Translations under genes and position numbers: made by a program | Source: Alphaproteobacteria bacterium | GTDB taxonomy: Bacteria; Pseudomonadota; Alphaproteobacteria; UBA9219 | Length of the DNA: 64,000 nucleotides | Assembly (NCBI GenBank): GCA_028683655.1 | Contig: JAQUHK010000002.1 | Coordinates: 996-64,995, forward strand | Reading direction: 5' to 3' | The notes under the pieces: generated by a model | Told to the model about the DNA's origin: nothing | Databases searched by the model: none | The model's input: the letters and a program-made list of their open reading frames with translations, nothing else | Part shown: piece by piece, positions 1,758 to 27,105 of the stretch | Layout: each line of letters begins with the position of its first letter | Numbering within the stretch: the stretch's first letter is position 1

Positions 1758-2378
1758 TTAGAAGAACCTCAATAGTGTTTGGTAAGAACATCAGTTGTAT
1801 TGGATCGACAGAAAGCTGGGTCATGCCCTGCGCAAACAGCCGTTGTTTGTTGCACAAGGTGCCGAAGTTTTGGCAAGAAAAGCACTCTCGAACTGAAGAT
1901 GCGAGGGCGTCTTAAGCGCGACAAGCTGGTAGGCAGGGCCATCTGCATAAACAATCGAAGGCAGACTTTGATAATCACTTATGGTTTCGATCAGAGCTGG
2001 CATTTACAATTTCTACACATAAAAATGGCATTCAGTGTGACAGCGAATGACAACTGGCCCATTGTCTTTTTTTGTGTATCTGAACGTTTCCGCGGATAAC
2101 TAATAACTCTAACTGAATGAGATCAAAAGGAAAGACATTCTTTATGACAACTCATGCTTATCGATCCGTTGGGTTCATAGGCTTGTAACACATTGTTATA
2201 TATATGATCTCATTTAGGCCAATGACGTTAAATTAAGAAGAAAAACTAGACAATATCAATAGGTTGGGTCTATCTTCGCCTGTATCAGAGTCAAGTCAAT
2301 ATACCCGTAGTTTCTAAAAGTTTCCCTTTCATGGGGACAACTCATGAGTTCCTCTCGTAAGAAAGTTTGATTGATACA

Positions 2379-8786: not shown

Positions 8787-8803
8787 AAAGAGGGGAGGTC
8801 AAA

Positions 8804-12800: not shown

Positions 12801-12876
12801 TGTTGAGAACGAGTCCTTCAAACGCTTTGTCAGCGACATGGTCTTTGGGATAACAAACGAGGCTCGGCCAACTTGA
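9862..12876 (+). CDS. hsdR: Type I restriction enzyme R subunit HsdR (ResIII/SF2 helicase)
   Basis: Walker A HSAGSGKSNS; DEAH-like VIDEAHSSQ; motif III FTATP; QTLSRLNR motif VI. ATGA overlap with the darG stop. Confidence 0.9.
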   Translation: MTTDTSEKGLETLIIRHMTGLDGIGVAPNQVAEQPNASGTGYHAGSPKDFDRTHILDVPQLFAFLRATQLAAFEKLGIANADDPKDITRLQLLARLSSEIGKRGVIDVIRKGIEHGPVHFDLFYATPSEGNVKAQELHAKNRFSITRQVGYSLDEARRALDLCLFINGLPISTFELKNSLTKQTVEDAVEQYRRDRDPRELLFGFGRCVVHFAVDDSEVRMCTELKGKASWFLPFNKGYNDGAGNPPNSTGLKTDYLWKEILHPQRLTEILENYAQIVEIKNEKTGRKKRVQIFPRYHQLRVVRKTLADVQANGVGKRYLIQHSAGSGKSNSIAWLSHQLIGVKRNDKEVFGSVIVVTDRTILDDQIQKTIKQFLQVGAIVGHAEHSGDLRKFITEGKKIIVSTVQKFPFILDEISAVGGKTFAIVIDEAHSSQGGKTSTAMSRALSNPTTEEEVDPEDTVNEALEKRIAGRRMLTNASYFAFTATPKNKTLEMFGEALPPDSEGKVKHTPFDSYTMKQAIEERFILDVLKAYTPVDSYYKLIKRIEDDPEFDAKRANKKLRKFVETHDHAIRLKAEIMVDHFHNQVIASGKIGGQARAMIITNGIERAIQYYHAVKDYLVERKSPYQAIVAFSGEPEYKGIKVSEASLNGFSSNDIADRIQNDPYRFLICANKFQTGYDEPLLHTMYVDKPLAGIQAVQTLSRLNRAHPQKHDCFVLDFQNNSESITLAFQDYYRTTILSEETDPNKLHDLKAALDDAQVYSPQQIETFVSLFLAGAERDKLDPILDVCVATYSEALDEDQQVDFKGKAKMFTRTYDFLASVMPYTNSEWERLSILLNLLVPKLPAPKEQDLSKGILEAIDMDSYRVEKKAVMKLALENKDASIAPIPLDNRGGRAEPELDRLSNIIHSFNENFGTLFTDSDRVVKRIREDIVPQVAADIAYQNAKQNTPHTARMAHDQALNRVMQALLKDDTHVYKQFVENESFKRFVSDMVFGITNEARPT

Positions 12877-13139
12877 TAACTCTTAGCTCCATATAAAATT
12901 GATACGTTTGCCTTTAGAAGTTTTTCTAAAGAGGTGGGTGCGATTAAAATCTTCCTACGTTACCAATATCTGGCAACTTCCTACCTGTAAGTGGTAGATT
13001 AGCGCTTTTTAAACCATTGTTTTTCCTAATAGTTTCATGCGCTGGCTGGTACAATGCCTTCATTGGATTTTGCGTGATGGCTACGGATTTTAGTTAACAA
13101 ATAGTGAAAGCATTTTGACTTAACACATAAGGAGGAGAT

Positions 13140-13619
13140 ATGTTGGGAATAGCTTTTTTAGATTTCAGACCCCTTTCAATTCCAACGATTGACTGGGGCA
13201 AAAAGGTTCGGAGCTTTTTGAACGTGACCGAGAGTCCTCGCTTCACATATGTCATGTCTGTAATAACTACAGAAGATGATATGCGCGAGCCCACTAGTTT
13301 GGGAATGATTTATCGTGACGAATTGCTCGGCAAGACCTATAGCGCTGACAGCCTCCTTTTTGAGAAAAAAGGGAATACCCATAAATCTCTTTGCTCAGCA
13401 CTAGAAGTTGAACGTCCTGAACAGCTTAAAGCTAAAATGACCCGGGCTGCCTTTAAGAAAGCTGGATTGAAGCCGCTTGGTATTGACGTTGAAAATGATT
13501 TTGTTTCCTTCCTGAAGGAAACAGCCGAAAAGGCAGGGATCGTTTTCATAGATCGTAGGGCACGGACAGCTACTAATGGAATGTCGCCGAATGGCATTCC
13601 TGTATGCGCACTCGTCTAA
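13140..13619 (+). CDS. Hypothetical protein (159 aa)
   Basis: Good RBS taaggaggagat before the ATG; no recognisable domain. Confidence 0.45.
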   Translation: MLGIAFLDFRPLSIPTIDWGKKVRSFLNVTESPRFTYVMSVITTEDDMREPTSLGMIYRDELLGKTYSADSLLFEKKGNTHKSLCSALEVERPEQLKAKMTRAAFKKAGLKPLGIDVENDFVSFLKETAEKAGIVFIDRRARTATNGMSPNGIPVCALV

Positions 13620-13992
13620 TCATTCTCATTTCGGAGACTGACCATGTCGAAGTGTGCGTTCGTTGCGCCACCATCCGGGCTTGTGCCTGTTGATTACCGG
13701 AAGAACATCCAAAATCAGATTTTGGCGTGCGATCCCGCCATTGTATTGGCATGCAAAGACTATGTTGTATTTTATTCCGGCCCGTCCATTGCGGTTATTA
13801 ATGAACTCGGTTACATATCGTACAATAATAACGACAGATCAGCGATACTGGCCCACGCCCTTAGCCCTTGGTTCAAATATGGAAGAGCCTCTTTAAAGCG
13901 TTGTTCAAGAGGAAGTCCAGCAAACTCGCGGGCATTCGGGCGAAGGTCCAAGATCAAGCCCTCCGTATCCTCAACGCTTCCGTCTGCCCATG

Positions 13993-14517
13993 TTAAGCAA
14001 TCTTAAGCCGTTCAAGAGCACTAGGGGGGATAAGCCGTTCAAGATAACAAATTGGGGCTGATGATCCATCGGCAAAAAGGGCAATTGTTTTACTTTTAAT
14101 AATTGCCCCTCTACGAACATGGGCCTGTAGCCACTTCGTATAGTCCTCACGAATTGTAAACACAGATAAATGCTGCCCGTGAGAAAGAGCCCAGTTGTCA
14201 AGCATAGCAAGAAATACGCTTACCGCTTTTGATCCCCTGTAATTGGGATACACATAGGCCTCGCCATATCGGACCGTCATTTCGTCAACCTTATTTGCCG
14301 TCATCGCACCGACAAGAGATTCCCCTGAAAACGACCCTACAATTACATGGTTTGGCGTTTCCTTGCAGCGGGCCCCCCATTCGCTCATTGTACAGACCAG
14401 TTCCGTTTTGGGATTGCCTGTCGAATAACGGCTGTCAGGTCCCGTTAGCGCGATTGTGCGAAGCTGTTTATATTTCGCCGCGTCATTTTCATCCAGAAAA
14501 CGGAAAGTCATACTCAT
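13993..14517 (-). CDS. GNAT-family N-acetyltransferase (putative)
   Basis: VYPNYRGSKAVSVFLAMLDNWAL resembles GNAT motif A (R/Q-x-x-G-x-G/A). Confidence 0.5.
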   Translation of the reverse strand: MSMTFRFLDENDAAKYKQLRTIALTGPDSRYSTGNPKTELVCTMSEWGARCKETPNHVIVGSFSGESLVGAMTANKVDEMTVRYGEAYVYPNYRGSKAVSVFLAMLDNWALSHGQHLSVFTIREDYTKWLQAHVRRGAIIKSKTIALFADGSSAPICYLERLIPPSALERLKIA

Positions 14518-15158
14518 TCAACAATCTCCGCTTCTTTCCATGCCGCATCAAAAGCAAATCTATACGCTGCCGCAAATGGACCTGCTTTGTGAAGGACAAC
14601 ATAGGGGGGGGTCTGGTGATCGAAAGAAATAAGTGCCAGATTATCGCCATAGGCATAGAAAGAGACGTCAGGCATTCCAATAATTTTTTTCTGTCGTCGT
14701 AAATCAGCCCACGTTCGTTTGAAGTTACCATCGGCTGCCAAAATCCGACCTCGTATCTTGCCTGTCTTTGCAAGATCAAGCATTTTCTTGCGATAAGCTT
14801 CTATGTTCTTAACAGCTTTTTGAAACGCACACTCGTTTGTAATGGATGCAAAAACATCCCCACCAAATTGTTCGAGGTAAGCTTCAACCTGTATTAAGAA
14901 ATCATTAAACCTATCTCGCCCTTCAAAAATCTCAACACCGATCGGTGCGCGACGAACGCCTTCATTTTCGATAAACTCAACACCAGCGTTACGAAAAGCC
15001 ACTGCTATTTTTTCAATCGTTTCTCTCTTCGGCGAGCTTTCTTCATTTTCAATATAGTGGATCGCTGCTGTGCTTAATCCACTATGCTTCGCGAGATCAC
15101 TACGATCCCAACCTAAAAGGACACGCGCTGCCCGAATTTGCTTGCCTGAAACGTGCAT
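14514..15158 (-). CDS. XRE-family HTH transcriptional regulator with C-terminal unknown domain (paralog family member)
   Basis: N-term QIRAARVLLGWDRSDLAKHSGLSTAAIHYIENE shares its pattern with 15983, 17444, 29168 and 53523. Confidence 0.65.
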   Translation of the reverse strand: MHVSGKQIRAARVLLGWDRSDLAKHSGLSTAAIHYIENEESSPKRETIEKIAVAFRNAGVEFIENEGVRRAPIGVEIFEGRDRFNDFLIQVEAYLEQFGGDVFASITNECAFQKAVKNIEAYRKKMLDLAKTGKIRGRILAADGNFKRTWADLRRQKKIIGMPDVSFYAYGDNLALISFDHQTPPYVVLHKAGPFAAAYRFAFDAAWKEAEIVE

Positions 15159-15446
15159 TACCTTACCTCATAAAAAGTATGTGCAGTTTATACCATTGCA
15201 GCAATTAAGATTGAAAGAAAAATCGTTCGATATGACGTTCGCTACCCATTATGAGTAAAAGGATGCCATTTATTGGTAGTCAAAAGGTTACTATTTTATT
15301 AACCCTCCTAGCTTACGCGCCCCATCGGTATAATCGGATTATACTGGCAGGCTATATCGAATATACATTATTGTTGCTTGAACCTGAGCTTTACGCTATT
15401 GTCCAACACATGCATTAAGTCGAATTTTCAATTATGAGGATACAAA

Positions 15447-15617
15447 ATGATTGATTTTGAAACGATTTACAAAAAGCACGGCGAAGATTTTATCTGGAAT
15501 ATCATGCATATCTGGGAAAAAGACAACAAAGTTCAGCATTTTCATATGACACTAGAACAACGTTGGGAACATTTTATCCTCTGCACAGACACCGCAGCCC
15601 ATTCAGTGATGCATTAA
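15447..15617 (+). CDS. Small hypothetical protein (56 aa)
   Basis: ATG preceded by gagga RBS; below the ORF-track size cutoff. Confidence 0.3.
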   Translation: MIDFETIYKKHGEDFIWNIMHIWEKDNKVQHFHMTLEQRWEHFILCTDTAAHSVMH

Positions 15618-15627
15618 GGTCTGCGCC

Positions 15628-15963
15628 ATGACAAAACCTAAGAGCCTTTCCCCCGACCAGCTATTTGCTAAAGCCGTCAATCAGGTGGGCCGCGACCTTT
15701 CTTCCAGCGATCTACGCCTTTTGACTTCCGGCCTCGTGGCTCTGCGCGAAGCGCATGGAAAGCTTTTGAACGAAATCGAACTCAAAGCTCTTTCTGGCAT
15801 GATTGCCTTTGTGGCCTATTCACAAGAAGCCAACGAAACAACCGTCATGGCCGTTCTATTGGCGCATTTTTGTTTTGAAGACGTAAAAATGATTCCCTCG
15901 CGCCTGTATGATAGCGCGATGGATTTCTTGATGAATGTAAAGATGAAACACATCGTAAACTGA
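15628..15963 (+). CDS. Hypothetical protein (111 aa)
   Basis: ORF only. Confidence 0.4.
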   Translation: MTKPKSLSPDQLFAKAVNQVGRDLSSSDLRLLTSGLVALREAHGKLLNEIELKALSGMIAFVAYSQEANETTVMAVLLAHFCFEDVKMIPSRLYDSAMDFLMNVKMKHIVN

Positions 15964-15982
15964 TTTTTGGAAAACAAATTTT

Positions 15983-16672
15983 ATGAACACCGTGACCGCC
16001 GAACAGATTAGAGGGGCGCGATCCATGCAAAAATGGACACGCGAGGAAATGGCCGAGGCATCGGGGCTGTCTCGCAATACCATTTGCAATTTGGAATCCG
16101 GCGATCTTATTCCGCGCGGCAAGACGCTTGAGAAACTGTGCCAGGCCATGAAAGAGGTCGGGCTTGAGTTTACTGATGGCGGCGTTCGTCGCATAAGAAT
16201 GGATGTTGCGCTAATAGAAGGGGAAGACAGCGTTGACATTTTCCTCGACCTTCTTTTGAGCAAGGCAAAGAGCAAGGGGGGAGAAATCATCGGCATTTTT
16301 CCAACTCAAAAAGTTATGATGAAATCCCTTGGCATTGAAAACGGAAATTTTGAGCGTCTCAAAAAGATTCTGGTTCATGCCGATATGAAGGTTCTGTTAC
16401 GGGAAGCTGACGCGCCACAGTTCTTGCTCGACAAATTCCAGTACAAAATTGCACATGAAAGCTGCAATTGCGCCATGTCGTATTTTGTTTTTGATAATAG
16501 CTTTGCGATGGTGTTCCACGGCAACCGAGTACAATATAAGTACGCTGTTTTTAACAACACAGAAACAGCTATAGGAAACAGGATATATTTCAGTGGTGCG
16601 TGGATTGCTGCATCCTTCCGTCAAGCTTCGCGCCCCGTTCAACATAAGAAAGAAGAGCGTGCCCGCGCATAA
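15983..16672 (+). CDS. XRE-family HTH regulator paralog (229 aa)
   Basis: EQIRGARSMQKWTREEMAEASGLSRNTICNLESGD HTH motif; same family as 14514..15158 and 29168..29821. Confidence 0.65.
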   Translation: MNTVTAEQIRGARSMQKWTREEMAEASGLSRNTICNLESGDLIPRGKTLEKLCQAMKEVGLEFTDGGVRRIRMDVALIEGEDSVDIFLDLLLSKAKSKGGEIIGIFPTQKVMMKSLGIENGNFERLKKILVHADMKVLLREADAPQFLLDKFQYKIAHESCNCAMSYFVFDNSFAMVFHGNRVQYKYAVFNNTETAIGNRIYFSGAWIAASFRQASRPVQHKKEERARA

Positions 16673-16908
16673 CAAAAGGCGCATTAAGGCTTGAAGTCGC
16701 ACAATTCCCTGTGCGGCTTCTTTTTTGTTCACAGCACCGCATAATATGTTTGCGCTTTTGCACAACAGATTCAGCAGAACAACCAAATTGAATCGCAATT
16801 GGTTCTTATAACCAAAAACTTGGTTCCTGTGCCTTAAAATTGGTCTTCTTTTTTTCTCCTCAAACCGCGCATGTAATCCTTGTTGATATTGAACAAGGAG
16901 ATTTCAAC

Positions 16909-17436
16909 ATGACGATAGGCACGACAAACAAACACCTCATCCACAACATTCATGAACCGCTTTTCACGTTCGCTTGGGATCGCGCGGAGCGCGTCAATCT
17001 CATCCTTTTCAGCGAAGACGGTAACGAGGTTCTGACCGTGAAGAAAGGCAAAGACTTCGATATTCTACGCGGGGTCCGCGAATGGGACGACAACACGCTA
17101 GAAGATACGGCACGACGCGTGGCAATAGATCATGCCAGCGCAACGCTTGATGCGGTGACAATCTGCGCCGTGCTTTCAACTCAGGGCGAACTACTTTGTG
17201 AAGTCTCGTATGAACTTGTCATAACCGCCTTTGTCAAAAGTCTAGGGCCGCGCCGCGCATGGCAAGAAACAGAATGCGAATTCATCGACAAAGAAACATT
17301 TCTTAAACGCTATCGTTCCGGCGACCGTGAGGAAATGGAAGTGCTGATTGGTATGGCAGAAGATTTTCGGGTGCGCCGTAGAACAGGCAAAAATTACCGT
17401 GAGCTGTCACAAACGAAATTCTCACAAAAGGCATAG
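16909..17436 (+). CDS. Hypothetical protein (176 aa)
   Basis: GGAGA RBS before the ATG at 16909; track ORF starts upstream at 16840. Confidence 0.4.
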   Translation: MTIGTTNKHLIHNIHEPLFTFAWDRAERVNLILFSEDGNEVLTVKKGKDFDILRGVREWDDNTLEDTARRVAIDHASATLDAVTICAVLSTQGELLCEVSYELVITAFVKSLGPRRAWQETECEFIDKETFLKRYRSGDREEMEVLIGMAEDFRVRRRTGKNYRELSQTKFSQKA

Positions 17437-17443
17437 GACACAA

Positions 17444-17770
17444 ATGATTTCTCGACAGCCTATCCCTAGACAAATCAAAGCCGCACGGGCATTGCTGAGT
17501 TGGACACGCAAGGATCTTGGCAACGAATCCGGCATGTGCGCAGAAACGATCAAAAACATCGAATATGGCGTCTCTTCGCCAAAGAAAGAAACACTAGCGG
17601 CGCTTGTCGATGCCTTCGCCCGTCATGGCGTTCAATTTGTTCACTATGAGACGCTTACCGGCGGTCCAACGGAGAGGGCCTCGAAGTGCTCATTGAAAGT
17701 CATTTCTTATGTTGGCGCGGTTCATCTCACTGTTACCGCACCTGAAATCATGGAGGAAGATCATGATTAA
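17444..17770 (+). CDS. Short XRE-family HTH regulator (108 aa), same paralog family
   Basis: RQIKAARALLSWTRKDLGNESGMCAETIKNIEYG. Confidence 0.6.
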   Translation: MISRQPIPRQIKAARALLSWTRKDLGNESGMCAETIKNIEYGVSSPKKETLAALVDAFARHGVQFVHYETLTGGPTERASKCSLKVISYVGAVHLTVTAPEIMEEDHD

Positions 17771-18035
17771 CTGCATGCACCCAAGTCGCATTCTCGATCA
17801 AATCACCACCGCAACAGATAAACGGTTTGAGCTTGTCGCGTGTATTGCTGACGCAATAGTTGAAACGACAATGGAGGTCGGTTACTGCGCGCAGGTAACT
17901 CTCATAGACAAAGGCTTCACGCATCAAGATGTAGCATATCTCTGGCATTTTGCCTGTGCGCTTGCTGACGTTGAACTTAAGTGCAGCAAGAACGGCATTT
18001 GTTCCCCTTTCGAGAAGGGGGTGCGCTATGCATAA
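17763..18035 (+). CDS. Hypothetical protein (90 aa)
   Basis: ATG at 17763 preceded by ggaggaag; overlaps neighbouring genes by a few nt. Confidence 0.35.
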   Translation: MINCMHPSRILDQITTATDKRFELVACIADAIVETTMEVGYCAQVTLIDKGFTHQDVAYLWHFACALADVELKCSKNGICSPFEKGVRYA

Positions 18036-18315
18036 AACGAAAGCTTGCTCGTCCCCTGCCTACATTAAGAAAGAGAGAATATCAAAACCAACAGAGAAAC
18101 TAACGCATAGAGAAGTCGAAATTTTGACTTGGAGCGCGAGAGGCAAGACACGCTCGGAAATATCCATCATACTGTCACTTTCTGAAGAAACAGTCAAAGA
18201 TCATTTAGCAAGAATCCTTCGGAAGCTGGGAGCAGTTAATAAAGTGCATGCTGTTTCAATAGCGTGTGTTCTAGGACTGATTGTGCCCTATCAAGAAAGC
18301 AACTTGAACGAGTGA
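18028..18315 (+). CDS. LuxR/GerE-type HTH transcriptional regulator (DNA-binding domain only)
   Basis: LTHREVEILTWSARGKTRSEISIILSLSEETVKDHLARILRKLGAVNKVHAV matches the GerE HTH. Confidence 0.65.
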   Translation: MHKTKACSSPAYIKKERISKPTEKLTHREVEILTWSARGKTRSEISIILSLSEETVKDHLARILRKLGAVNKVHAVSIACVLGLIVPYQESNLNE

Positions 18316-18481: not shown

Positions 18482-18533
18482 CAAGGGCTTTTATGACGAT
18501 CAGTGGCTTATTTCTCAAACATAGGAGGAACTA

Positions 18534-19589
18534 GTGCTTAGTGGTGCTCAAAAAGAAGTAGACGTGGCTAATCAACCGATTATAACGCCTTGTAATGCTT
18601 GGAAGAACAAGGAATTCTACCTTAAAAATCTTTTGCAAGACCCTTGGTACGCCTTCACTTCAAAACTTCTGAGTGCAATCTACGTGGCAACACACGATTT
18701 CTTTGAAAAGAAATCTATCAAGCCTTTTGTTTTCCCGATTACAACGGGCTCTGTCAGCAGCCCCATGGGCATGGGAAGTGATTCTCTTCCTGTTCAGATA
18801 TCACTGAGGGGCAATGATGTCTTCCTAGCCGATTCCATGCAGTTTTCGCTTGAAGTCGGAACTAGGCTTAATCGAGATGGAGCGTACTATGTTATGCCAA
18901 CCTTTCGTGGGGAATCTGTTGATTCACGTCACTTAAATGAATTTGTTCACGCCGAAGTTGAGATTCCCGGAGTGCTTAATGACGTTCAAGATCTGGCTGA
19001 AGGCTATATCCGCCACCTCGTGGCTTACTTGCTCGAAAACTGTGAAAAGGAAGTAGCAGAAATTGCTGGAGACATTGATCATCTTCTTCTCTTGTCGGCG
19101 CGACGCGATCCTTTCACAAAAATTTCCTACAGCGATGCGATACAGGAAATTTTATCCGTGGATGGTGCGCTAGAAGATATTGGCACTGGGTTCTCCAACA
19201 TCACAGCTCTTGGTGAGAAAGCCCTTATGCGCAAACATGGCGACTTCATCTGGTTAACTCATATGCCATGGAGAAATGTGCCGTTTTATCAAGCACAATT
19301 GCAGGGCACCGCCTATTCGATGACGGGTGACCTTCTTGCCGGAATAGGGGAAATTCTTGGATGCGGGCAGCGTGTTGGCTCGCTAGCAGATCTTGAAGAG
19401 TCCCTGCGGGTTCACAATGTTAGCGCAGCGGGTTATGAGTGGTATGCTGAAATGCGTGATCTTTGCCCTATGCAAACCTCTGGCTTTGGCCTTGGAATTG
19501 AGCGATTTCTGCTTTGGGCAACACAAACAAATGATATCCGGAATTGCAGCCTCCTGTATCGTGATCACAACCAGATCTTTTACCCATAA
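18534..19589 (+). CDS. Class II (subclass IIb) aminoacyl-tRNA synthetase catalytic-core paralog / AsnA-like amino-acid ligase, no anticodon-binding domain
   Basis: Motif 2-like PTFRGESVDSRHLNEFVHAEVE (fRxE); motif 3-like SGFGLGIERFLLWAT. GTG start 6 nt after AGGAGG. Length 351 aa is a catalytic core only. Confidence 0.6.
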   Translation: MLSGAQKEVDVANQPIITPCNAWKNKEFYLKNLLQDPWYAFTSKLLSAIYVATHDFFEKKSIKPFVFPITTGSVSSPMGMGSDSLPVQISLRGNDVFLADSMQFSLEVGTRLNRDGAYYVMPTFRGESVDSRHLNEFVHAEVEIPGVLNDVQDLAEGYIRHLVAYLLENCEKEVAEIAGDIDHLLLLSARRDPFTKISYSDAIQEILSVDGALEDIGTGFSNITALGEKALMRKHGDFIWLTHMPWRNVPFYQAQLQGTAYSMTGDLLAGIGEILGCGQRVGSLADLEESLRVHNVSAAGYEWYAEMRDLCPMQTSGFGLGIERFLLWATQTNDIRNCSLLYRDHNQIFYP

Positions 19590-19620
19590 ACCTGTCTACC
19601 TTATATGAAAGGCCTTCACC

Positions 19621-20505
19621 ATGACTCTAGATATTGCATGGCCAAGCAGAGAAAAAAAAGATCGCGCTCGCGAAACAGTGGAATATTTCAATCCGAAAGC
19701 TAAAGATTATGACAAGACGGATGAACAGAGCTATTGGGTTTTTTCTGATCGACTCTTGTGGAGGTTGTTAAACGACCATATTTTGAGCGATTTGGCAAAA
19801 ATTAAGCCGTCATTTTCTCTTCTCGACGCAGGCTGTGGCACAGCGCGCTGGTCGTCAAAGATTTTAGAGGCTTACCCACAAAGTAGTGCAACTCTTCTGG
19901 ACATTACGCCAAACATGCTCGAAGTTTCTAAACAGAAACTTGAGAGCATGGGGCTTTCGTCACGAGCTGTATTGAAGCAACTGGATCTGAATGATTTAGA
20001 AGGCTTTCCGTTAAATCCACACGATTTGGCAATTTGTTTTCACAACGTGCTAAGTTTTGTTGTTGATCCTGCGGCAGTCATTCGAAGCCTTGTGAATAAA
20101 ATCAACGGTGGAGGAACGATATGTCTTGTTATTCCCAATCTTTTCCATGCCGTAAGTTTCAGCGCATCACTCGGGCGAATGATTGAGGTTAAGAGAGCCA
20201 TGAAGTCCTGCGCCGTCAAGTTTACAGATGAGGTTCCTGAGATGTGGGTATTCTCACCTGACAAAATCAAGAAAATCTTTGCATCTGCCGGTGTTTTGGA
20301 CTGCAGCGTCTTTGGCTTTCCCGTAACAGTATACCCACAGTTCGAAGAGACACAAATTGTAGGCAACAGCTCAAACAACAGCAAGCTTTTTGCAAATGAT
20401 GCTGCCGTTCAAACGTTGTTCGAAACTGAGCTGGTTTTATCAAACCAGCAAGAAGCGGCAGCACGTGGAAACAATCTGTTGGTAATTGCAAGAAAAGCAA
20501 CGTGA
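19621..20505 (+). CDS. Class I SAM-dependent methyltransferase
   Basis: LLDAGCGTARWS motif I (G-x-G-x-G). Confidence 0.7.
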   Translation: MTLDIAWPSREKKDRARETVEYFNPKAKDYDKTDEQSYWVFSDRLLWRLLNDHILSDLAKIKPSFSLLDAGCGTARWSSKILEAYPQSSATLLDITPNMLEVSKQKLESMGLSSRAVLKQLDLNDLEGFPLNPHDLAICFHNVLSFVVDPAAVIRSLVNKINGGGTICLVIPNLFHAVSFSASLGRMIEVKRAMKSCAVKFTDEVPEMWVFSPDKIKKIFASAGVLDCSVFGFPVTVYPQFEETQIVGNSSNNSKLFANDAAVQTLFETELVLSNQQEAAARGNNLLVIARKAT

Positions 20506-20569
20506 TCCTGTTTCTGGCATAACTTTATTATGAAATGAGCCACCGCATCAGCGGTTTATTGGGGGAAGA

Positions 20570-21859
20570 ATGCAGGCCAAAGATTTTTCGGATAGCTGCG
20601 CTCGTATTCGAGACGCCTTTATCCAGTCATTTCAAGATGCTCAGTTTGTCAATTTCGGCGTTAAGCCTCTAGTTCCGGAAGCTGATCAAAGCGTCATTTT
20701 TGTCGGTGCCTCTATTTCTGCTTTCAAACCATTCTTAACCAACCAATTGGTCTTTAACCAGAAATTCGATAACATGGTGCTTGTGCAACCATGTTTGCGT
20801 TTACACAATCTCAATAACCTTCTGAAGACACCTGTTCTTCAATACTACAGTTATTTCAATATGCTTGGCGCACTATGTCAACCATCTGCCGAAAAGCTAA
20901 CGATTGATGCCCTTGTCCGTTTCGTGGGTCAAATAATGACGAAAGGCATCATTAGAGCAAGCCGTCAGGAAACACCTTATTACTCAATATTCAATAATGC
21001 ATTCTCTATTGAACTTGACACACGTCCACCAGAATATTACAGCTGGATTTTTGGCACCAAAGAGTACATTGGGAAAGGCGTGACTCTTGCTCTTTCTAAC
21101 CACAACAAGAACTTCTGGCAGTTTAGCGTCAAAGATATTAGCAAGCCAGGTGCTGCTGCCTTGCCAGAAAACTTTGGAACAGGATTTCAGGATGTAGGCA
21201 ACCTTATCCGCCTATATGACCATAGTGGTCGACATATTGCGTCCGAAATTGGGCTTGGAATTGAAACAATTCATCAAGCTCAAAGTAATTGTGCGAGCCA
21301 GGTTGAAAGCTATGCGTACAAATCCATTCTTGAAAAGGTGTGTTCTAACGCCAGCGACCATTTTGTCGACTCAGCTGTTACATCGACAATCATCGTACAA
21401 GCAGGCGTGCGCGACGAAAATTCAAAAAGGGGTCAGCTTCTGAACAAAGCTGTGCGTAATACCGTATACACGGGATTAATAGAAGGGATGAATTTGGATC
21501 AAATAACGCGATCCACAGACACCTTGAATCAATTTTTAGGTGGCTCCCCATCAAACGCTGAAGACGTGCGCAAAATTGTAGAAAAGCAGTACTATGCTGC
21601 GATAAAGAATATTACAAATCTTGGCAGAGTTTTATCATCACCGCCCTCATCTGGGCGCGATGAGCATAGCCGAAAAAAGCTTGTAAAAAAAGTAATGAAC
21701 CTTGCTGATGGTGAATACTATATTCCGGATGTTGTGAGGGATCATCTTTTAAGCCAAAAAGGTCTGGTTGATCCTAGTCAGAATGGAGCTACTCCCTATC
21801 GCCCGCTTGACAGGCTGTTCCAGTTCATTCAGTCCAATCCTGCGCCAATTATGTGCTAA
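20570..21859 (+). CDS. Divergent alanyl-tRNA-synthetase catalytic-domain-like protein (paralog of 23076..24380)
   Basis: PLVPEADQSVIFVGASISAFKPFL and VQPCLRLHNLNN...YFNMLGA parallel AlaRS SLVPxNDPTLLFTNAGMxxFK and QxCxRxxxxHNDxxNVG...TFFEMLGN. The GDTGPCGPC block is absent. Confidence 0.45.
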   Translation: MQAKDFSDSCARIRDAFIQSFQDAQFVNFGVKPLVPEADQSVIFVGASISAFKPFLTNQLVFNQKFDNMVLVQPCLRLHNLNNLLKTPVLQYYSYFNMLGALCQPSAEKLTIDALVRFVGQIMTKGIIRASRQETPYYSIFNNAFSIELDTRPPEYYSWIFGTKEYIGKGVTLALSNHNKNFWQFSVKDISKPGAAALPENFGTGFQDVGNLIRLYDHSGRHIASEIGLGIETIHQAQSNCASQVESYAYKSILEKVCSNASDHFVDSAVTSTIIVQAGVRDENSKRGQLLNKAVRNTVYTGLIEGMNLDQITRSTDTLNQFLGGSPSNAEDVRKIVEKQYYAAIKNITNLGRVLSSPPSSGRDEHSRKKLVKKVMNLADGEYYIPDVVRDHLLSQKGLVDPSQNGATPYRPLDRLFQFIQSNPAPIMC

Positions 21860-21874
21860 AACGGGAGATATAAG

Positions 21875-22942
21875 ATGTCAGTGCTATTGAAAAATTTGGT
21901 TCGTCCGCGATGCCTTCAAGCCGGTGACTTAGTTGCTGCTGTAAGCTTATCTTGGGGTGGAGCTGCGATTTTTCCTCACCGGTATGAAACGGGCAAAAGT
22001 CAGTTTGAGCAGGCTTATGGCATCCGCGTGGTTGAGATGAAACATACGCTTAAATCTCCTGCGTGGATTGCTCAAAATCCGGCAGCAAGAGCCGATGACT
22101 TAATGGAGGCCTTCACAAATCCCGAAATATCAGGAATCGTGTCTGTCATTGGTGGCGATGATTCAGTGCTTATTTTGCCCTATTTGGATATAGGGGTAAT
22201 CGAGAAGAATCCGAAGCTATTTGTCGGTTATTCGGATACAACGGTAACTCATTTTGCTTGTTTAAAAGCTGGTGTGACAAGTTTTTACGGCCCCAGCATT
22301 ATGGCAGGATTTGCTGAAAATGCGGGTTTGCATAGTTATATGCGTCATTCTATCGAGAAAACCATGTTTTCACCTGAACCCGTCGGAACCATTATGCCAG
22401 CACAGGGCTGGACTACCGAACATCTTGACTGGGCCAGTCCTGAAAATCAAAAGCAGGCGCGAAAGATGAATCCTAATACAGGCTGGGTGTGCTTGCAAGG
22501 CACAGGCCGCACACAAGGTCGCTTGATTGGCGGGTGTGTAAGTACAATGCAGATGATTGAGGATACAAACATATGGCCAGAGCTTGATGTTTGGCGCGAC
22601 GGAATTCTTTTCTGCGAAGTCTCTGAGGAACTATCGTCAGCAGATGACTTCAAATTATGGCTACGCCATATGGGAGAAAAAGGCATATTGCAGGTTCTTA
22701 ACGGCATTCTCTTTGGGCGTCCCAGTGGACAAACGCCAAAAGCCGATTGGCATTTGTTTGACGAGGCATTTCTTTCGGTGATCCGTGATGAGCTTTCCCT
22801 GACAAGCCTTGCCATACTCTCACATCTGGATTTTGGCCATACGGACCCTATGTTTGTATTACCCTACGGTGTCATGGCCGAAATTGACTGTGACAAAACC
22901 TCGCTTGCTATACTTGAAAAAGCTGTGTTACCAAGGAGTTAG
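21875..22942 (+). CDS. Peptidase S66 family (LD-carboxypeptidase LdcA / microcin C immunity MccF-like)
   Basis: KLFVGYSDTTVTHFACLKAG contains the S66 GYSD catalytic-serine motif. Confidence 0.65.
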   Translation: MSVLLKNLVRPRCLQAGDLVAAVSLSWGGAAIFPHRYETGKSQFEQAYGIRVVEMKHTLKSPAWIAQNPAARADDLMEAFTNPEISGIVSVIGGDDSVLILPYLDIGVIEKNPKLFVGYSDTTVTHFACLKAGVTSFYGPSIMAGFAENAGLHSYMRHSIEKTMFSPEPVGTIMPAQGWTTEHLDWASPENQKQARKMNPNTGWVCLQGTGRTQGRLIGGCVSTMQMIEDTNIWPELDVWRDGILFCEVSEELSSADDFKLWLRHMGEKGILQVLNGILFGRPSGQTPKADWHLFDEAFLSVIRDELSLTSLAILSHLDFGHTDPMFVLPYGVMAEIDCDKTSLAILEKAVLPRS

Positions 22943-23075
22943 GAATGCAAAGGTGTGTTGGCGGAACAAGCAACAAGGTGTAAACTCTGGCGCAGGTTGA
23001 GATGTTTGGCGTGCTTTAGCGTGAGCCGAATAAATAGAAAAAAAGATACCAACTTAACAATGAAAAGGGGGAATT

Positions 23076-24380
23076 ATGACAACCACCACACAAATTATTC
23101 GTGAGCAATTTTTAGAGTTCTTTCAATCACGTGATCACATGATCATCCCTGGAGCCAGCCTAGTTCCCTCGAACGATCCAACTTTATTGCTGATAAATTC
23201 TGGCATGGCTCCTATCAAACCCTATTTTACAGCGGAAGCTGTGCCCATTAGCCCCCGCCTGTGCAATGTTCAAAAATGCATCCGCACTAATGACATTGAG
23301 GATGTCGGCGATCGTTCACATTTAACATTCTTTGAGATGCTTGGCAGCTGGTCGATTGGAGATTATTTTAAAGATGTCGCGGTAGAGCTTGCCGGAGATC
23401 TGCTGATGGGGAAGTTAAATATTCCTCAAAGTAAACTATATGCTACTGTCTATAAAGGAAACGACACAATTGGGCTAGCTTACGATGAAGAAAGCCATCG
23501 CGCATGGGAACGGTTGGGTTTCAAAAGCAATCAAATTGTTCCTCTTGGTGATGAAGATAATTTATGGGGGCCCGCTGGTGACACAGGGCCATGTGGACCA
23601 TGCACCGAGGTGTTCATTGATCTTGGCGACAAAACAGGTATTGGCAGCTATGAAGAAACTGGCATCTTTAACACACGCCGCTACATTGAGATTTGGAATG
23701 CTGGTGTCTTTATGCAGCTTAACAAAAATGCTGATGGCTCGTATGCCCCACTTCCATTTACCAGCGTGGACACAGGCGCAGGCCTAGAGCGTCTAACTAT
23801 GGCCATTAATGGCAATGAAAATGTGTATCAGGAGGAGCCGTACACATTACTTCTGACACAAATGCCTTCGGTTTTCTCGCAACATGAATGTCGTGTCGTT
23901 GCAGATCATGTGCGCGCCGCTTCACACCTTATTAGTGATGGTGTGTCGCCTGGGCGTAATGGCAGGGAATATATTACGCGACGCCTTATCCGTCGAATGG
24001 AAACAATCGCCGCATGTCATCGAACAAAGATTCCATATCCAGAACTGTTAAATGTCGTGCAGGCTAAAGACGGCAGAAATCACGAGGAATTTAAAAAAAG
24101 CGACGCCTTAATTAGAGAAGTTGTTGCGGCGGAAGTTGCCGTGTTTTCCCGCACACTGTCTTCAGGTCTTAAGGCATTCGATAAAGTTACCCGTAAGTTG
24201 AATGGATCAGCTGAATTGCCAAGCCAACATGCTTTCAACATCGTTACGGCTCATGGCTTTCCCTTAGAGGCCCTTGAACAAATTGCGACGACGCGTGGGC
24301 TGCGTATTGATCGACCAGGGGTGGAGCTTCTTATGGATCGACACAAAGCACTGTCACGCGGCGCGCCAAAACCAAAGTAA
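23076..24380 (+). CDS. Alanyl-tRNA synthetase N-terminal fragment-like protein (aminoacylation plus tRNA-recognition domains only; no editing or C-Ala domains), 434 aa
   Basis: Near-collinear match to the AlaRS N-terminus: LVPSNDPTLLLINSGMAPIKPYF, CIRTNDIEDVG, HLTFFEMLGSWSIGDYFK, GDTGPCGPCTEVF, RYIEIWNAGVFMQ, SVDTGAGLERL, RVVADHVRAASHLISDGV. Ends where the editing domain would begin. Confidence 0.8.
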   Translation: MTTTTQIIREQFLEFFQSRDHMIIPGASLVPSNDPTLLLINSGMAPIKPYFTAEAVPISPRLCNVQKCIRTNDIEDVGDRSHLTFFEMLGSWSIGDYFKDVAVELAGDLLMGKLNIPQSKLYATVYKGNDTIGLAYDEESHRAWERLGFKSNQIVPLGDEDNLWGPAGDTGPCGPCTEVFIDLGDKTGIGSYEETGIFNTRRYIEIWNAGVFMQLNKNADGSYAPLPFTSVDTGAGLERLTMAINGNENVYQEEPYTLLLTQMPSVFSQHECRVVADHVRAASHLISDGVSPGRNGREYITRRLIRRMETIAACHRTKIPYPELLNVVQAKDGRNHEEFKKSDALIREVVAAEVAVFSRTLSSGLKAFDKVTRKLNGSAELPSQHAFNIVTAHGFPLEALEQIATTRGLRIDRPGVELLMDRHKALSRGAPKPK

Positions 24381-24423: not shown

Positions 24424-24525
24424 TGAAAGGAGACGTGCTGGACAACACACCTTTCTCATTATCTGTTGCGCACGTCGGATCGAGTAATTAGGAAAGGTTG
24501 ATAGATGCTTCTAATTAGAAATCAA

Positions 24526-24942
24526 ATGAAGGCATTTAAGAACACACTGCTTCTTGTTCTAGTTGCACAGGCAATCGTCGGATGTCGCGGACAAGAAAAA
24601 AACGACAAGCGAAGCGATTTTATGAAGCAGTGCATTTCATTCAGAACGAATGACAAAATTCATTCAGTCGTGTTTAAGCAAGGGCAAGTCGTTATAACAA
24701 GAAGCTTTCTTGCACCGACTAGATTTGAAAGTTTTTACGTTTGTTTAAATGAACCACGCTGTGAGGATAAATTGGAATCTTGGCATTTGGGACCAGACAC
24801 GACGGGTCGTTTTGTGCGGCTTGTGAGTCCGAGCTCATTACCTACTCCTACGATGGTAAAGCGTGTGGACAAAACCGAGCCATTGCTGGCCAGAGGGAAC
24901 GCATTTCACGCCACGATTAAAGAGTGCGTAGCTTATGAATAG
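24526..24942 (+). CDS. Putative lipoprotein (about 138 aa)
   Basis: MKAFKNTLLLVLVAQAIVGC is a lipobox-like signal peptide (IVGC). Confidence 0.4.
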   Translation: MKAFKNTLLLVLVAQAIVGCRGQEKNDKRSDFMKQCISFRTNDKIHSVVFKQGQVVITRSFLAPTRFESFYVCLNEPRCEDKLESWHLGPDTTGRFVRLVSPSSLPTPTMVKRVDKTEPLLARGNAFHATIKECVAYE

Positions 24943-24964
24943 GCCACAAAAACAAAGGAACACG

Positions 24965-26065
24965 ATGAAAAAGATTCAACGTAACAAATATCTAGCCTAT
25001 GCGAGCAACTTGAAGCGGGAAGAAATTAAACAGATTGCAACCTATGTGCTGTGGCTTCCCGATCAAATCATCGACTGCCATGCACACTGCAATCTGGACA
25101 TACATGTTAAATCTTTGTCCCCAACTGTCTACAATCATATGATGTCAACCTTTCCAAGTTTTAATTTGGATGAATCTGAATCTTGGACAAAAGTCTTGCT
25201 GCCCGGCAAGGACGTTCAGCACCTCCGTTTTCCACATGCTTTTCCTGGCATTGATCACAGGGCTGCAAACACGTATCTCTTGGAAAACTCGCCCGACAAG
25301 GACTTGGTCGCGATCTATGGAATCCCCAATGATATTCCCTACACAATTGAAACGCTTAATCATCCTCGCGCTTCGGCTCTCAAAATGTACTATTTATATT
25401 TAGATCCTCCAGCGAAAGATGTATATCAATTTTTTCCAACACAGGTTTTGAAAGAGGCTGAGCGTTTAAAAAAGCCGATCATTTTGCATCTTCCGAGCCC
25501 GCTCCCTCAATGCGTTGATCAAGTCGAACGTTTAGCACAAGATTTTCCTGAGCTGAAGATTTGCCTCGCGCATTTGGGTGTTTGCGAAACAGTTACCTCT
25601 GAATTGGAATCGGCCTTTCGGAAGATCAGGCCCTATCCCAATATCAATATGGACACGGCACTTGTGCCCTCTTCTAAAGTTGTAAGTTTGGCCTACGATG
25701 TTTTGGGTTTGAAAAGGATCATGTATGGTTCGGATGCCCCCTTAAATCTCATCCGTTCAGTTTGGTATCAAAATCCAGAATTAGGAACCAGATTGGCAAC
25801 CGAATTCCCCTATCATTGGGCAAACCCATCAGAATACGTTAAATATAAACACCTAGCGCTGAATTCCATTCATGCTCAATGGACGGCCTTGGGGGCGATC
25901 CATTCCTTTTTTGATGGGAAGTGGGGTCCAGAACGCATTCAAGCTAAATTAGCCATTTTCCACAGCAACGCCAAAATATTTTTTGGTTTTCCTGATTATG
26001 AACCCACACGGCCTTGTAATACTATACCCAACCTGCAGAACAGCAACGAACAAACATTGAAATAA
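24965..26065 (+). CDS. Amidohydrolase-2 / TIM-barrel metal-dependent hydrolase family protein
   Basis: IIDCHAHC metal-binding start, internal HLPSP and LAHLG, late GSDAP motif. RBS aaggaac before the ATG at 24965. Confidence 0.5.
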   Translation: MKKIQRNKYLAYASNLKREEIKQIATYVLWLPDQIIDCHAHCNLDIHVKSLSPTVYNHMMSTFPSFNLDESESWTKVLLPGKDVQHLRFPHAFPGIDHRAANTYLLENSPDKDLVAIYGIPNDIPYTIETLNHPRASALKMYYLYLDPPAKDVYQFFPTQVLKEAERLKKPIILHLPSPLPQCVDQVERLAQDFPELKICLAHLGVCETVTSELESAFRKIRPYPNINMDTALVPSSKVVSLAYDVLGLKRIMYGSDAPLNLIRSVWYQNPELGTRLATEFPYHWANPSEYVKYKHLALNSIHAQWTALGAIHSFFDGKWGPERIQAKLAIFHSNAKIFFGFPDYEPTRPCNTIPNLQNSNEQTLK

Positions 26066-26082
26066 TCTTACAGGAGAACGAT

Positions 26083-27105
26083 ATGACAACCGTTAATTTA
26101 AGTATTCGTGATTTTGGTGACCATGCCTGTTTATTTATTCCTGTGCAGCGAGGCGTTCGTGTTCTGTGGGAACTGACCAAACGCTGCAATCTTGCATGCA
26201 AACATTGCTTCGTTCCTCCATATTCTAAGGAACGCGGTGATCTTTCTACGGCTCAATGCATCTCAATCATGGACAGTTTTCCTCAAGCTGAAGTCACACG
26301 CATTATATTCAGCGGCGGCGAACCTTTGACGAGGCGAGACATTCCAGAATTGATCCAAGCATCAAATGCGCGAGGCATTCAGGCCGCATTGTGCACAAAT
26401 GCGACACTTGTTACTGACTCTATTGCAAGAGATTTATATCGATCTGGACTTCGCGAAGCTTTCGTCAGCTTAGATGGTGCAACAGCTGAAGTTCATGACG
26501 GACAGAGGGGCCTTTCCGGCAGCTTTGACAGGACTATCAAAGGGATCAAAACGCTTAAGTATAATGGTCTGACCGTTGATATCTCCTGTATTCCGACAAA
26601 GCTAAACATCCATGACTTGCAAGAACTTCCCCGACTATGCAGTTCGCTTGGCTGTTCATCAATAACTTTCGGGGGATGGTTTCCTAAGCAAAACATGCGC
26701 GGCACTGGCGGTGATCTGACGCCTGACGCTCAATCAATGACTAAGTTCCTTCACTCATTCCGAGAGGTCGGTGAGAAAGCCAACATGCCTATGCACACGA
26801 GCAGGCTTGTTCCTCACGCGCCGCTTGAAGCTTGTCCCGCTGGCGTATCTATCATTGGGATAGATGCCAGTGGCCACTACCACCCATGTCTCAATATTCC
26901 TACAACGCATTCCGAAATTACCGATGCGCTGAAGGCATCAATCACAGAAATCCTGAAGAGATTTAAAAAGATACCCGAACTGCCTACGTGCGCAAAAAAT
27001 TGCCCTAGCGGCGAAGAATGCTTTGGCGGCTGCCCAGCGGATAAAATCAATGGGGTAGATAGGGTATGCTCACAAAAAGGATTAGTTTCTTTACAAATTA
27101 GGTAG
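26083..27105 (+). CDS. Radical SAM enzyme with C-terminal SPASM-like Cys-rich domain
   Basis: CNLACKHC (CxxxCxxC) with downstream FSGGEPL. C-terminal CPAGVS...HYHPC...CAKNCPSGEECFGGC cysteine cluster. Confidence 0.8.
   Translation: MTTVNLSIRDFGDHACLFIPVQRGVRVLWELTKRCNLACKHCFVPPYSKERGDLSTAQCISIMDSFPQAEVTRIIFSGGEPLTRRDIPELIQASNARGIQAALCTNATLVTDSIARDLYRSGLREAFVSLDGATAEVHDGQRGLSGSFDRTIKGIKTLKYNGLTVDISCIPTKLNIHDLQELPRLCSSLGCSSITFGGWFPKQNMRGTGGDLTPDAQSMTKFLHSFREVGEKANMPMHTSRLVPHAPLEACPAGVSIIGIDASGHYHPCLNIPTTHSEITDALKASITEILKRFKKIPELPTCAKNCPSGEECFGGCPADKINGVDRVCSQKGLVSLQIR

Follow-up and report, generated by a model that had tools for sequence, protein, structure and literature searches.

What function is served by an aminoacyl-tRNA synthetase (aaRS) catalytic core that lacks the anticodon-binding domain? 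This question is raised by a gene at positions 18534-19589 of a 64,000-nucleotide stretch of an alphaproteobacterial metagenome-assembled genome (MAG; GTDB lineage UBA9219, GenBank assembly GCA_028683655.1, contig JAQUHK010000002.1, positions 996 to 64,995 of the forward strand), which we refer to throughout, at its full length, as the window. By its sequence, the core is a new member of the family of AgnA, the enzyme encoded on the agrocin 84 production plasmid, and it is the first gene of a compact block of five. We favor, with a probability of roughly 55%, the reading that it is a tRNA-independent, ATP-using enzyme in a block that makes an agrocin-84-type alanyl-adenylate mimic aimed at alanyl-tRNA synthetase (AlaRS). 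The family assignment and the gene context are well supported, and from them we infer the chemistry and the product. The genes concerned are the following:

18523..18528, + strand: AGGAGG ribosome-binding site, 5 nt 5' of the GTG start, read from the sequence
18534..19589, + strand: AgnA-like class IIb aaRS catalytic core, AsnRS-derived, 351 aa, without anticodon-binding domain
19621..20505, + strand: class I S-adenosylmethionine (SAM)-dependent methyltransferase (Pfam Methyltransf_31/25/12/11), 31 nt downstream of the core
20570..21859, + strand: degenerate AlaRS-like protein 'AlaL1', 429 aa, with Pfam tRNA-synt_2c at residues 13-100 only
21875..22942, + strand: S66 serine peptidase, MccF/AgnC5-like, 355 aa (Pfam Peptidase_S66 and S66C)
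23076..24380, + strand: stand-alone AlaRS catalytic fragment 'AlaL2', 434 aa (Pfam tRNA-synt_2c, 379 bits, profile positions 2-430 of 552)

The core gene appears in the window's list of open reading frames (ORFs) with a GTG start codon and a 351-aa product, the AGGAGG preceding it reads as a strong ribosome-binding site, and the product is the same protein that NCBI annotates in the MAG (P0001; 100% identity and coverage). The Pfam family tRNA-synt_2 (D/K/N; PF00152) matches residues 45-340 (E 5e-32, 111.6 bits against a gathering cut-off of 25), in an alignment that covers profile positions 24-303 of 308 and thus the whole catalytic domain. An initial annotation of this DNA had pointed to an fRxE motif-2-like and a GFGLGIERFLL motif-3-like signature; these correspond to F124-R125-G126-E127 ('FRGE') and to residues 317-327, in which motif 3 itself is G317-F-G-L-G-I-E-R324. 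The motif 1 proline is P68, the acidic Mg ligands are D266 and E273, and the motif 2 loop is of near-normal length. All of these residues (P68, F124-E127, G317-R324, D266 and E273) are invariant in the 78 of 78 AgnA-family members that we aligned, and because the catalytic residues are so strictly conserved we regard the core as a genuine gene under selection, as opposed to an ORF that arose by chance.

Structure prediction agreed with the sequence assignment. In the AlphaFold2 model (mean pLDDT 84.9) the core adopts the class II antiparallel beta-sheet fold, with low confidence at residues 76-83, the equivalent of the mobile 'flipping loop' of class IIb enzymes. Its best Foldseek matches in the PDB are the AsnRS catalytic domains 9sh8 and 1x54 (Thermus and Pyrococcus; E ~1e-23), with TM-scores normalized to the query of 0.78-0.79, and each of the top 50 is an AsnRS or AspRS catalytic domain. 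None of these matches is to an unrelated fold, ATP-grasp or other. Alignments to AsnRS begin only at AsnRS residue ~130-180, and neither they nor Pfam place an OB-fold anticodon-binding domain in the 351-aa core, so that the earlier description of it as an anticodon-domain-less class IIb core of the Asn/Asp type holds. Relative to AsnRS (1x54, 9sh8), the core keeps the catalytic fold with all three class II motifs, the residues that bind ATP and Mg, and the Glu and Arg that recognize the side chain of Asn; what it lacks is the N-terminal OB-fold, and in place of the flipping loop it has a longer loop, 'SSPxGxGSDSxP', that is invariant. The AgnA family further differs from AsnRS in having Asp100 (for Gln/Val), Gly126 (for Ala), Gln253 (for Met), Gly278 (for Ser) and Thr315 (for His).

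The two enzyme types to which the core had been likened, AsnA and EpmA/PoxA, did not withstand profile searches, and two further identities were rejected alongside them. E. coli-type AsnA (PF03590) gave no Pfam match at E<=0.01. The best NCBIfam matches are two models for 'asparagine synthetase A', NF005053 and NF005055 (the PRK06462 models), which describe the archaeal enzyme; the core scores far below their cut-offs (211.4 bits against 322 and 205.7 against 389), as do six further AgnA-family members, some of them named 'asparagine synthetase A' by NCBI. A phmmer search at E<=1e-3 matched 24 PDB sequences, and the solved archaeal asparagine synthetase A (PDB 3reu, 3rl6) was not one of them; its structure did not appear in the Foldseek top 50 either, and we therefore rejected this identity as well. 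No EpmA/PoxA model was among the NCBIfam matches listed for the core, and LysRS models matched it only at E ~2e-4 and 20 bits. A canonical AsnRS was rejected on the missing OB-fold domain and on scores far below the equivalog cut-offs (TIGR00457, 133.5 bits against 342.6; NF003037, 135.7 against 414). NCBI names many AgnA-family members 'asparaginase' or 'asparagine synthetase A' (P0001, P0044, P0048 and P0086 among others); because none of the seven members tested reached the curated cut-offs, these database names are probably wrong or misleading.

The closest named relative of the core is AgnA ('Agrocin84-synthetase') of plasmid pAgK84 from Rhizobium rhizogenes K84, with 40.6% identity over 340 of the 351 aa (97%; blastp E 7e-100), and a tblastn search of plasmids likewise led to agnA on pAgK84 (E 3e-86). 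The agnA gene has been described as a truncated AsnRS homologue without an anticodon-binding domain (PMC4392301), the same architecture as that of the core, and AgnA was proposed to join the amide moiety of agrocin 84 to AMP via a phosphoramide bond, although the exact pathway was still unsolved according to a 2021 review (PMC8323819). In our alignment of 78 members, AgnA included, the residues R125, E127, H133, F137, E141, E143, D266, E273, R280 and R324 are invariant, as are D100, S101, Q103 and L106; D100, S101, Q103, L106, E141 and R280 fall at the positions that contact the amino acid in AsnRS. AgnA and the core thus have every family-invariant residue in common, and these include invariants specific to the family: the S76-P77...G81-S82-D83-S84-x-P86 loop, D100, G126, H139, Q253, G278 and T315. 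The clusters reported so far as agn-like came only from Ensifer sp. ENS09 and 19 actinobacteria (PMC8323819), and our literature search found no AgnA homologues beyond that review. Agrocin 84, which targets LeuRS and contains no Asx (Asp or Asn) moiety, is the only product known for the family, and its cluster encodes an agrocin-resistant LeuRS, AgnB2 (PMC8323819; PMC4392301).

The resemblance to the agn cluster extends to the neighbors of the core. The five genes of the block are co-directional and closely spaced (18534-24380), in the order AgnA-like core, methyltransferase, AlaL1, S66 peptidase and AlaL2. The same five genes occur in the same order in a second MAG (GCA_053526855.1, hereafter L001; core 80% identical), with unrelated flanks on either side, and for this reason we take the five-gene block to be the unit. 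On pAgK84 the order is agnA, a SAM methyltransferase, agnB2 (LeuRS) and, further on, agnC5 ('MccF-like protein'). Common to both clusters are a methyltransferase directly downstream of the AgnA-type core, an S66 peptidase resembling MccF, and a synthetase that corresponds in type to the presumed target. They differ in that pAgK84 carries a full-length resistant LeuRS where the window has two AlaRS-derived genes, in the type of methyltransferase (AgnB1/MccD-type on pAgK84, another type in the window), and in the AgnC1 to C7 and AgnD to F genes and exporters of pAgK84, whereas the block has no AgnC1, sugar or opine-mimic genes and no exporter. The acyl group predicted for the window is alanyl, in contrast to the Leu-like dihydroxy-methylpentanoyl group of agrocin 84. 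Of this context the initial annotation had correctly given the adjoining methyltransferase, a class I SAM enzyme at 19621-20505 that lies 31 nt downstream; the homology to AgnA, the two AlaRS-derived genes and the MccF-like peptidase had escaped it.

To examine how general this arrangement is, we scanned GTDB species representatives and obtained 324 stretches with relatives of the core, from Alphaproteobacteria (many of them gut and rumen MAGs), Clostridia, Bacilli, Saccharibacteria and actinomycetes, as well as from Providencia, Rahnella, Photobacterium, Xylophilus and Legionella. The best 80 of these stretches, together with L001, a further locus (L004) and the window, gave 83 loci, in which ORFs within 7 kb of the core were clustered de novo; the resulting counts are lower bounds, since many loci are cut by contig ends. 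An S66 peptidase lies near the core in 67 of the 83 loci (median distance 910 bp, 27 of them within 200 bp) and a SAM methyltransferase of any kind in 65. The methyltransferases fall into two types that never occur together: the commoner one (45 loci) matches AgnB1 (33% identity, E 2e-64) and MccD (E 1e-26), and the window's own type is found in 20. A second ligase-like gene (class IIa-like, AlaRS-like, HisRS-like, ATP-grasp, AMP-binding or YcaO) was detected in 67/83, and a full or near-full aaRS in 20/83, with LeuRS in 6, AlaRS in 4, TyrRS in 4, MetRS in 4 and GlyRS in 3; no AspRS was found among the identified full-length aaRS genes. The type of partner aaRS follows the type of cluster, with AgnA, methyltransferase and S66 peptidase constant, and across the 78 aligned members the AgnA-family pocket is unchanged whether the locus carries LeuRS, AlaRS, MetRS, TyrRS or GlyRS. 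Because the pocket is invariant across partner types, AgnA-type enzymes would be expected to share one unchanging substrate, other than the acyl group, which varies. The earlier proposal of an amino-acid ligase with a non-tRNA acceptor is affected in part by this result: a tRNA-independent adenylating or ligase role remains the best reading of the core, but simple transfer of an amino acid to such an acceptor may be too simple, with the pocket constant while the partner aaRS varies.

The acyl group, by our reading, would instead be set by the AlaRS-derived genes. The AlphaFold2 model of AlaL1 matches the AlaRS catalytic fragments 1riq and 3hxu over ~445 columns (Foldseek TM-score normalized to the query, 0.62), and as modeled it contains the aminoacylation and tRNA-recognition domains across its full length. 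Its ATP site is degenerate: in the alignment the motif-2 Arg is kept, the GPCGPC loop is deleted, Asp235 is replaced by Glu and the motif-3 Arg by Thr, and some members of the AlaL1 clade also show an Asn-to-Gln change. A word-indexed search with AlaL1 returned 4 matches, and the wider family was assembled from the AgnA-like loci that we examined. AlaL2, by comparison, retains every AlaRS catalytic feature that we checked, namely the motif-2 Arg, the GPCGPC loop, Asn212, Asp235, Gly237 and a motif 3 of 'GLER'; its L001 orthologue is 82% identical and keeps the 434-aa length, and it is one of a considerable number of stand-alone AlaRS fragments with a length of ~435 aa. AlaL1-like genes and such ~435-aa fragments occur together in the window, in L001 and in two further loci (L026 and L095).

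A pair of this kind is known from the biosynthesis of ascamycin, in which the canonical-like AcmD charges tRNA(Ala) with alanine, and AcmF, a truncated AlaRS-like protein unable to activate alanine, then transfers it from the Ala-tRNA(Ala) to the amino group of adenosine 5'-O-sulfamate (PMC12945691). AlaL2 and AlaL1 parallel AcmD and AcmF as an intact AlaRS-type enzyme and a truncated AlaRS-like protein with a degenerate ATP site, and the Asp-to-Glu change, the loss of the motif-3 Arg and the deleted ATP loop of AlaL1 liken it to AcmF as described in print (PMC12945691). The likeness has its limits, in that the acceptor predicted for the window is a phosphoramidate and that of AcmF is a sulfamate, and the block, unlike the ascamycin cluster, has no sulfamate or halogenation genes. 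By this analogy AlaL1 is a candidate AcmF-like, Ala-tRNA-dependent transferase, and AlaL2 a candidate drug-resistant AlaRS, dedicated supplier of Ala-tRNA, or both.

The two remaining genes of the block belong to the part that is constant among loci. The window methyltransferase has an 82% identical orthologue at the equivalent position of L001, its homologues at 35-39% identity adjoin AgnA-like genes in ~20 loci, and it is weakly similar to AgnC3 (E 1e-5). The S66 peptidase shows 29.6% identity with MccF of E. coli (E 3e-37) and 28.7% with AgnC5 (E 6e-43), and it keeps the Ser118/Glu243/His311 triad, the adenine-stacking Trp186 and an MccF-type loop of ~30 residues. Among the S66 partners of AgnA-like genes, the equivalents of Ser118, Glu243 and His311 are present in 60 of 60 and that of Trp186 in 57 of 60, and the MccF-specific loop has a median length of 29 residues, compared with 30 for MccF and 9 for E. 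coli LdcA. MccF positions 220, 246 and 247, which we take to form the Asp/Glu-specific acyl pocket, are S, L and S in the window and vary across the partners, in a region where the alignment is less certain; to judge from the sequences, this variation fits immunity against varying acyl groups. We had also considered the S66 protein as a biosynthetic enzyme that trims Asp and thereby releases adenosine 5'-phosphoramidate, and downgraded this idea on the variable acyl-pocket positions and on a related locus (L093) that has no S66 gene.

Combined with the results above, these genes allow a biosynthetic scheme to be charted, all of whose chemical steps, as well as the identity of the product, we infer from the observed fold, family, conserved residues and neighborhood statistics. 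The AgnA-like enzyme would use ATP and an invariant Asx-like substrate or nitrogen donor to build an adenosine scaffold with an N-P (phosphoramidate) bond, either adenosine 5'-phosphoramidate or its Asx-linked precursor, with the nitrogen coming from Asx, an amide or ammonia. There is precedent for the transfer of an amino-acid amide nitrogen into a nucleotide phosphoramidate. The SAM methyltransferase would then alkylate the scaffold, one possibility being O-methylation of the phosphoramidate as in phosmidosine. Phosmidosine, from Streptomyces, is the prolyl N-acyl phosphoramidate of 8-oxoadenosine with an O-methyl phosphate; its chemotype, aminoacyl-NH-P(O)(OMe)-O-adenosine, fits our prediction and would need one methyltransferase, and our literature search turned up no phosmidosine gene cluster. 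AlaL1 would transfer alanine from Ala-tRNA(Ala) to the phosphoramidate nitrogen of a scaffold held in its former adenylate pocket, as AcmF does on a sulfamoyl nitrogen, and across the family a variable second enzyme would in the same way install the acyl group that defines the target. AlaL2 may supply the Ala-tRNA, following the precedent of AcmD, and may also or instead be a drug-insensitive AlaRS, as the counterpart of AgnB2; in the family at large, the co-located aaRS would likewise give immunity, provide aminoacyl-tRNA, or do both. The MccF-like S66 peptidase would shield the producer by cutting the bond between acyl group and nitrogen. From this scheme we predict an adenosine product of the alanyl-N-acyl-phosphoramidate kind, which may be O-methylated and would have AlaRS as its target. 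Such a compound would share the agrocin 84 chemotype, acyl-NH-P(O)(OR)-O-5'-adenosine, the class to which we would assign the products of AgnA-family enzymes. The five-gene cluster probably makes an undescribed inhibitor that mimics an activated amino acid, most likely alanine.

Several observations weigh against the alanyl-adenylate mimic. The role of AgnA-family enzymes in N-P bond formation is itself a proposal only, and the AsnRS-like side-chain residues that are retained (E141, R280 and L106) would fit equally well with a product that contains Asx and with Asx as the nitrogen donor. The window methyltransferase is not MccD/AgnB1-like. AlaL2 has neither the editing nor the C-terminal domains of AlaRS, which is unusual for an immunity synthetase, and its role could be limited to the supply of Ala-tRNA. 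A distinct AlaL1-like subclade accompanies GlyRS and not AlaRS in three loci (L017, L040 and L047), and L093, whose core is 70% identical to that of the window, has neither S66 peptidase nor AlaRS fragment within 10 kb. In that locus (positions 10001-15158) the AgnA-like gene, a window-type methyltransferase and an AlaL1-like gene are followed by a full-length ArgRS, which may simply be a housekeeping gene. The ORF list and Pfam reveal no exporter in the five-gene block, unlike pAgK84 or L095. Finally, the variation of the Asp-pocket positions among partner S66 proteins weakens the sub-idea that a constant Asp is trimmed.

The most serious alternative, though in our judgment an unlikely one, is a miniature, non-ribosomal version of microcin C, in which Asn and two ATP would give an aspartamidyl-adenylate through MccB-type succinimide chemistry and the target would be AspRS instead of AlaRS. 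The methyltransferase would then decorate the warhead, AlaL1 would add an alpha-amino Ala as a Trojan-horse uptake moiety, AlaL2 would provide Ala-tRNA, and the S66 peptidase would give MccF-type immunity. Such a scheme makes good use of the invariant AsnRS-type side-chain recognition (E141 and R280, with Leu replacing the Lys of AspRS), of an S66 peptidase 30% identical to MccF with triad and Trp186 kept, and of L093, which keeps an AlaL1-like gene without an AlaRS fragment. Microcin C itself follows the same logic of a stable N-acyl phosphoramidate adenylate mimic, and the commonest partner methyltransferase in related loci is MccD-like; some of these loci carry GNATs, PLP (pyridoxal phosphate)-dependent decarboxylases weakly similar to the N-terminal domain of MccE (9 loci) or PNP/Mtn-like nucleosidases (5 loci). 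The window, however, has neither an MccA peptide gene nor a ThiF-like MccB, an aaRS-derived enzyme standing in MccB's place, and its methyltransferase is of the other type. The MccF Asp-pocket positions are not kept in the window S66 protein, and the co-located full-length aaRS types vary, none having been identified as AspRS. Moreover, agrocin 84 has no Asx moiety and targets LeuRS (PMC8323819; PMC4392301), and an AcmF-type active site places the N-nucleophile on the adenosine 5'-O and not at an alpha-amine (PMC12945691). We dropped a purely microcin-C-like framing, as agrocin 84 proved to be the closer relative and the window methyltransferase is unlike MccD.

Three further readings keep the adenylating core but give it other work. 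As a generic tRNA-independent ligase it would pass an adenylated amino acid to a non-nucleotide amine, thiol or carrier, yielding a small peptide or amide unrelated to adenylate mimics; the intact adenylation machinery and the ATP-grasp, AMP-binding and YcaO genes of many related loci suggest peptide-like chemistry of this sort, but Pfam finds no carrier protein in the block, and the linkage to MccF-like, MccD/AgnB1-like and duplicated aaRS genes, together with the homology to AgnA, points to nucleotide-linked aaRS inhibitors, which makes a generic ligase quite improbable. Still harder to sustain is a housekeeping asparagine synthetase A of the archaeal type (AS-AR), making Asn from Asp, NH3 and ATP. 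That enzyme is also an AsnRS/AspRS-derived core without an anticodon domain, its profiles are the nearest curated models, and several homologues bear its name or that of 'asparaginase'; against it stand the sub-threshold scores of the core and the six other members, the solved enzyme left unmatched in sequence and fold, the agnA gene on an agrocin-production plasmid, and a setting in secondary metabolism and not amino-acid biosynthesis, in an island with mobility and defense genes and in a block with MccF-like and AlaRS-derived genes. The least credible reading is that of a modifier of macromolecules, which would attach an amino acid to a protein, in the manner of EpmA with EF-P, or to a modified base in tRNA, in the manner of GluQRS. 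An anticodon-less aaRS core is the architecture common to such paralogues, and a motif 2 loop of near-normal length is compatible with it, yet EpmA models were absent from the matches listed, LysRS reached only E ~2e-4, neither the window block nor the loci examined showed a partner of the EF-P or EpmB type, and no tRNA gene lies in or near the block. Searches in and near the block likewise found no dedicated tRNA, riboswitch or T-box, and promoter and terminator scans of the cluster performed no better than on shuffled sequence.

These findings matter for several reasons. The window cluster is a compact, previously undescribed combination of agrocin 84 and ascamycin features; in the literature searched we found no description of a cluster joining an AsnRS-like gene with MccD-like and MccF-like genes, and the breadth and modularity of the association of AgnA, methyltransferase and MccF-like peptidase are unreported there. 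Agrocin 84 is a commercial antibiotic for the biocontrol of crown gall whose biosynthesis is unsolved, and a five-gene relative in an uncultured alphaproteobacterium offers a small, tractable system for the function of AgnA-type enzymes and the formation of N-acyl phosphoramidates. The partner aaRS genes allow resistance-gene-guided prediction of targets for many cryptic aaRS inhibitors, and the product of the window cluster becomes a candidate natural AlaRS inhibitor. We put forward only tentatively, as a possibility that may well prove wrong, a wider generalization, in which AgnA-like enzyme, SAM methyltransferase and MccF-like peptidase would be the unvarying machinery behind an extensive and nearly unexplored superfamily of 'programmable' mimics of aminoacyl-adenylates. 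An AsnRS-derived enzyme would form the N-P bond on adenosine with nitrogen from an amide or ammonia, and swappable aaRS-derived transferases or ATP-grasp ligases would set the target. If this generalization is true, such N-P bond formation would be a new enzymatic route to nucleotide phosphoramidates, and the window product would be the first natural phosphoramidate-type AlaRS inhibitor, joining the logic of agrocin 84 to Ala-tRNA transfer of the ascamycin type.

Some of the related loci show arrangements of their own. Agrocin-84-like modules, with the order AgnA-like gene, AgnB1-like methyltransferase, S66 peptidase, PNP/Mtn-like nucleosidase and LeuRS, occur in Providencia burhodogranariea (L028), Rahnella sp. 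(L032) and an uncultured Clostridia bacterium (chicken MAG, L044), all outside the Rhizobiales and Actinobacteria from which clusters had been reported; the LeuRS of L028, the one tested of these three, is 40.5% identical to AgnB2. Two MAGs, of an uncultured Clostridium sp. (L040) and of Candidatus Coprosoma intestinipullorum (L047), each encode two GlyRS genes of ~455-475 aa together with a short AlaL1-like gene, and one GlyRS may supply aminoacyl-tRNA there and the other confer immunity; a GlyQ origin of the short GlyRS-linked AlaL1-like proteins was rejected, since they score better against AlaRS than against GlyQ. A minimal arrangement is found on the Pantoea agglomerans plasmid pPA-MXU-210 and five sister plasmids (L092, positions 8779-11290), where a 427-aa 'GNAT family N-acetyltransferase' contains the whole AgnA-like core (~43% identity) and is followed only by an MFS transporter, with no S66 peptidase or methyltransferase in the PLSDB gene table, which is itself incomplete.

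Outside the block, two sets of neighboring genes are of uncertain membership in the cluster:

17950..18315, + strand: LuxR/GerE-type helix-turn-helix (HTH) regulator (Pfam GerE, E 6e-17)
24505..27105, + strand: 145-aa putative lipoprotein, Amidohydro_2 protein and radical SAM protein, co-directional with tiny gaps

In L001 the gene upstream of the block encodes a PAS-domain protein instead of the GerE regulator, and the three downstream genes are all missing from that locus. The putative lipoprotein has a signal peptide ending in IVGC, and the radical SAM protein is 30% identical to AgnC7 over 187 aa (E 3e-9); these three may be strain-specific tailoring genes. The block has a G+C content of 45.2%, against 48.2% for the whole window, and it sits between two restriction/defense clusters, near a NikA-like mobilization protein and an integrase. 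Because of these mobility genes, the defense clusters and the G+C shift near the block, the setting suggests that the cluster lies in an integrative mobile island.

The first of the two defense clusters (2367-12876, + strand) is a type I restriction-modification system with two extra genes between its subunits, in a region made up as follows:

2367-4688, + strand: HsdM, type I restriction-modification system
4685-6787, + strand: GmrSD-family endonuclease with DUF5655, in the type I restriction-modification region
6784-8136, + strand: HsdS, type I restriction-modification system
8133-8786, + strand: 217-aa ORF without assignment, in the type I restriction-modification region
8774-9865, + strand: macro-domain protein, in the type I restriction-modification region
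9832-12876, + strand: HsdR, type I restriction-modification system

The second (39098-51426, - strand) is a defense-like operon that encodes an AAA_13/SMC-like ATPase, a ResIII helicase with an RE_endonuc domain, a 349-aa protein, an N6/N4 DNA methylase, a DUF4391 protein and a 1090-aa SNF2-type helicase. The NikA-like mobilization protein and the phage-type integrase are encoded at 30833-31417 and 34112-35272 (+ strand), and beyond them the G+C content falls to 36% at 36001-38000, where a 775-aa ORF (36195-38522, - strand) has no Pfam match. Several HTH/XRE-type regulators are encoded at 14514-17770 and 29168-29821, with Pfam HTH_3 matches at 17348-17770 and 29168-29821; small ORFs with no Pfam match lie between the regulators, and ORFs 14514-15158 and 15983-16672 appear from their translations, compared by eye, to be paralogues.

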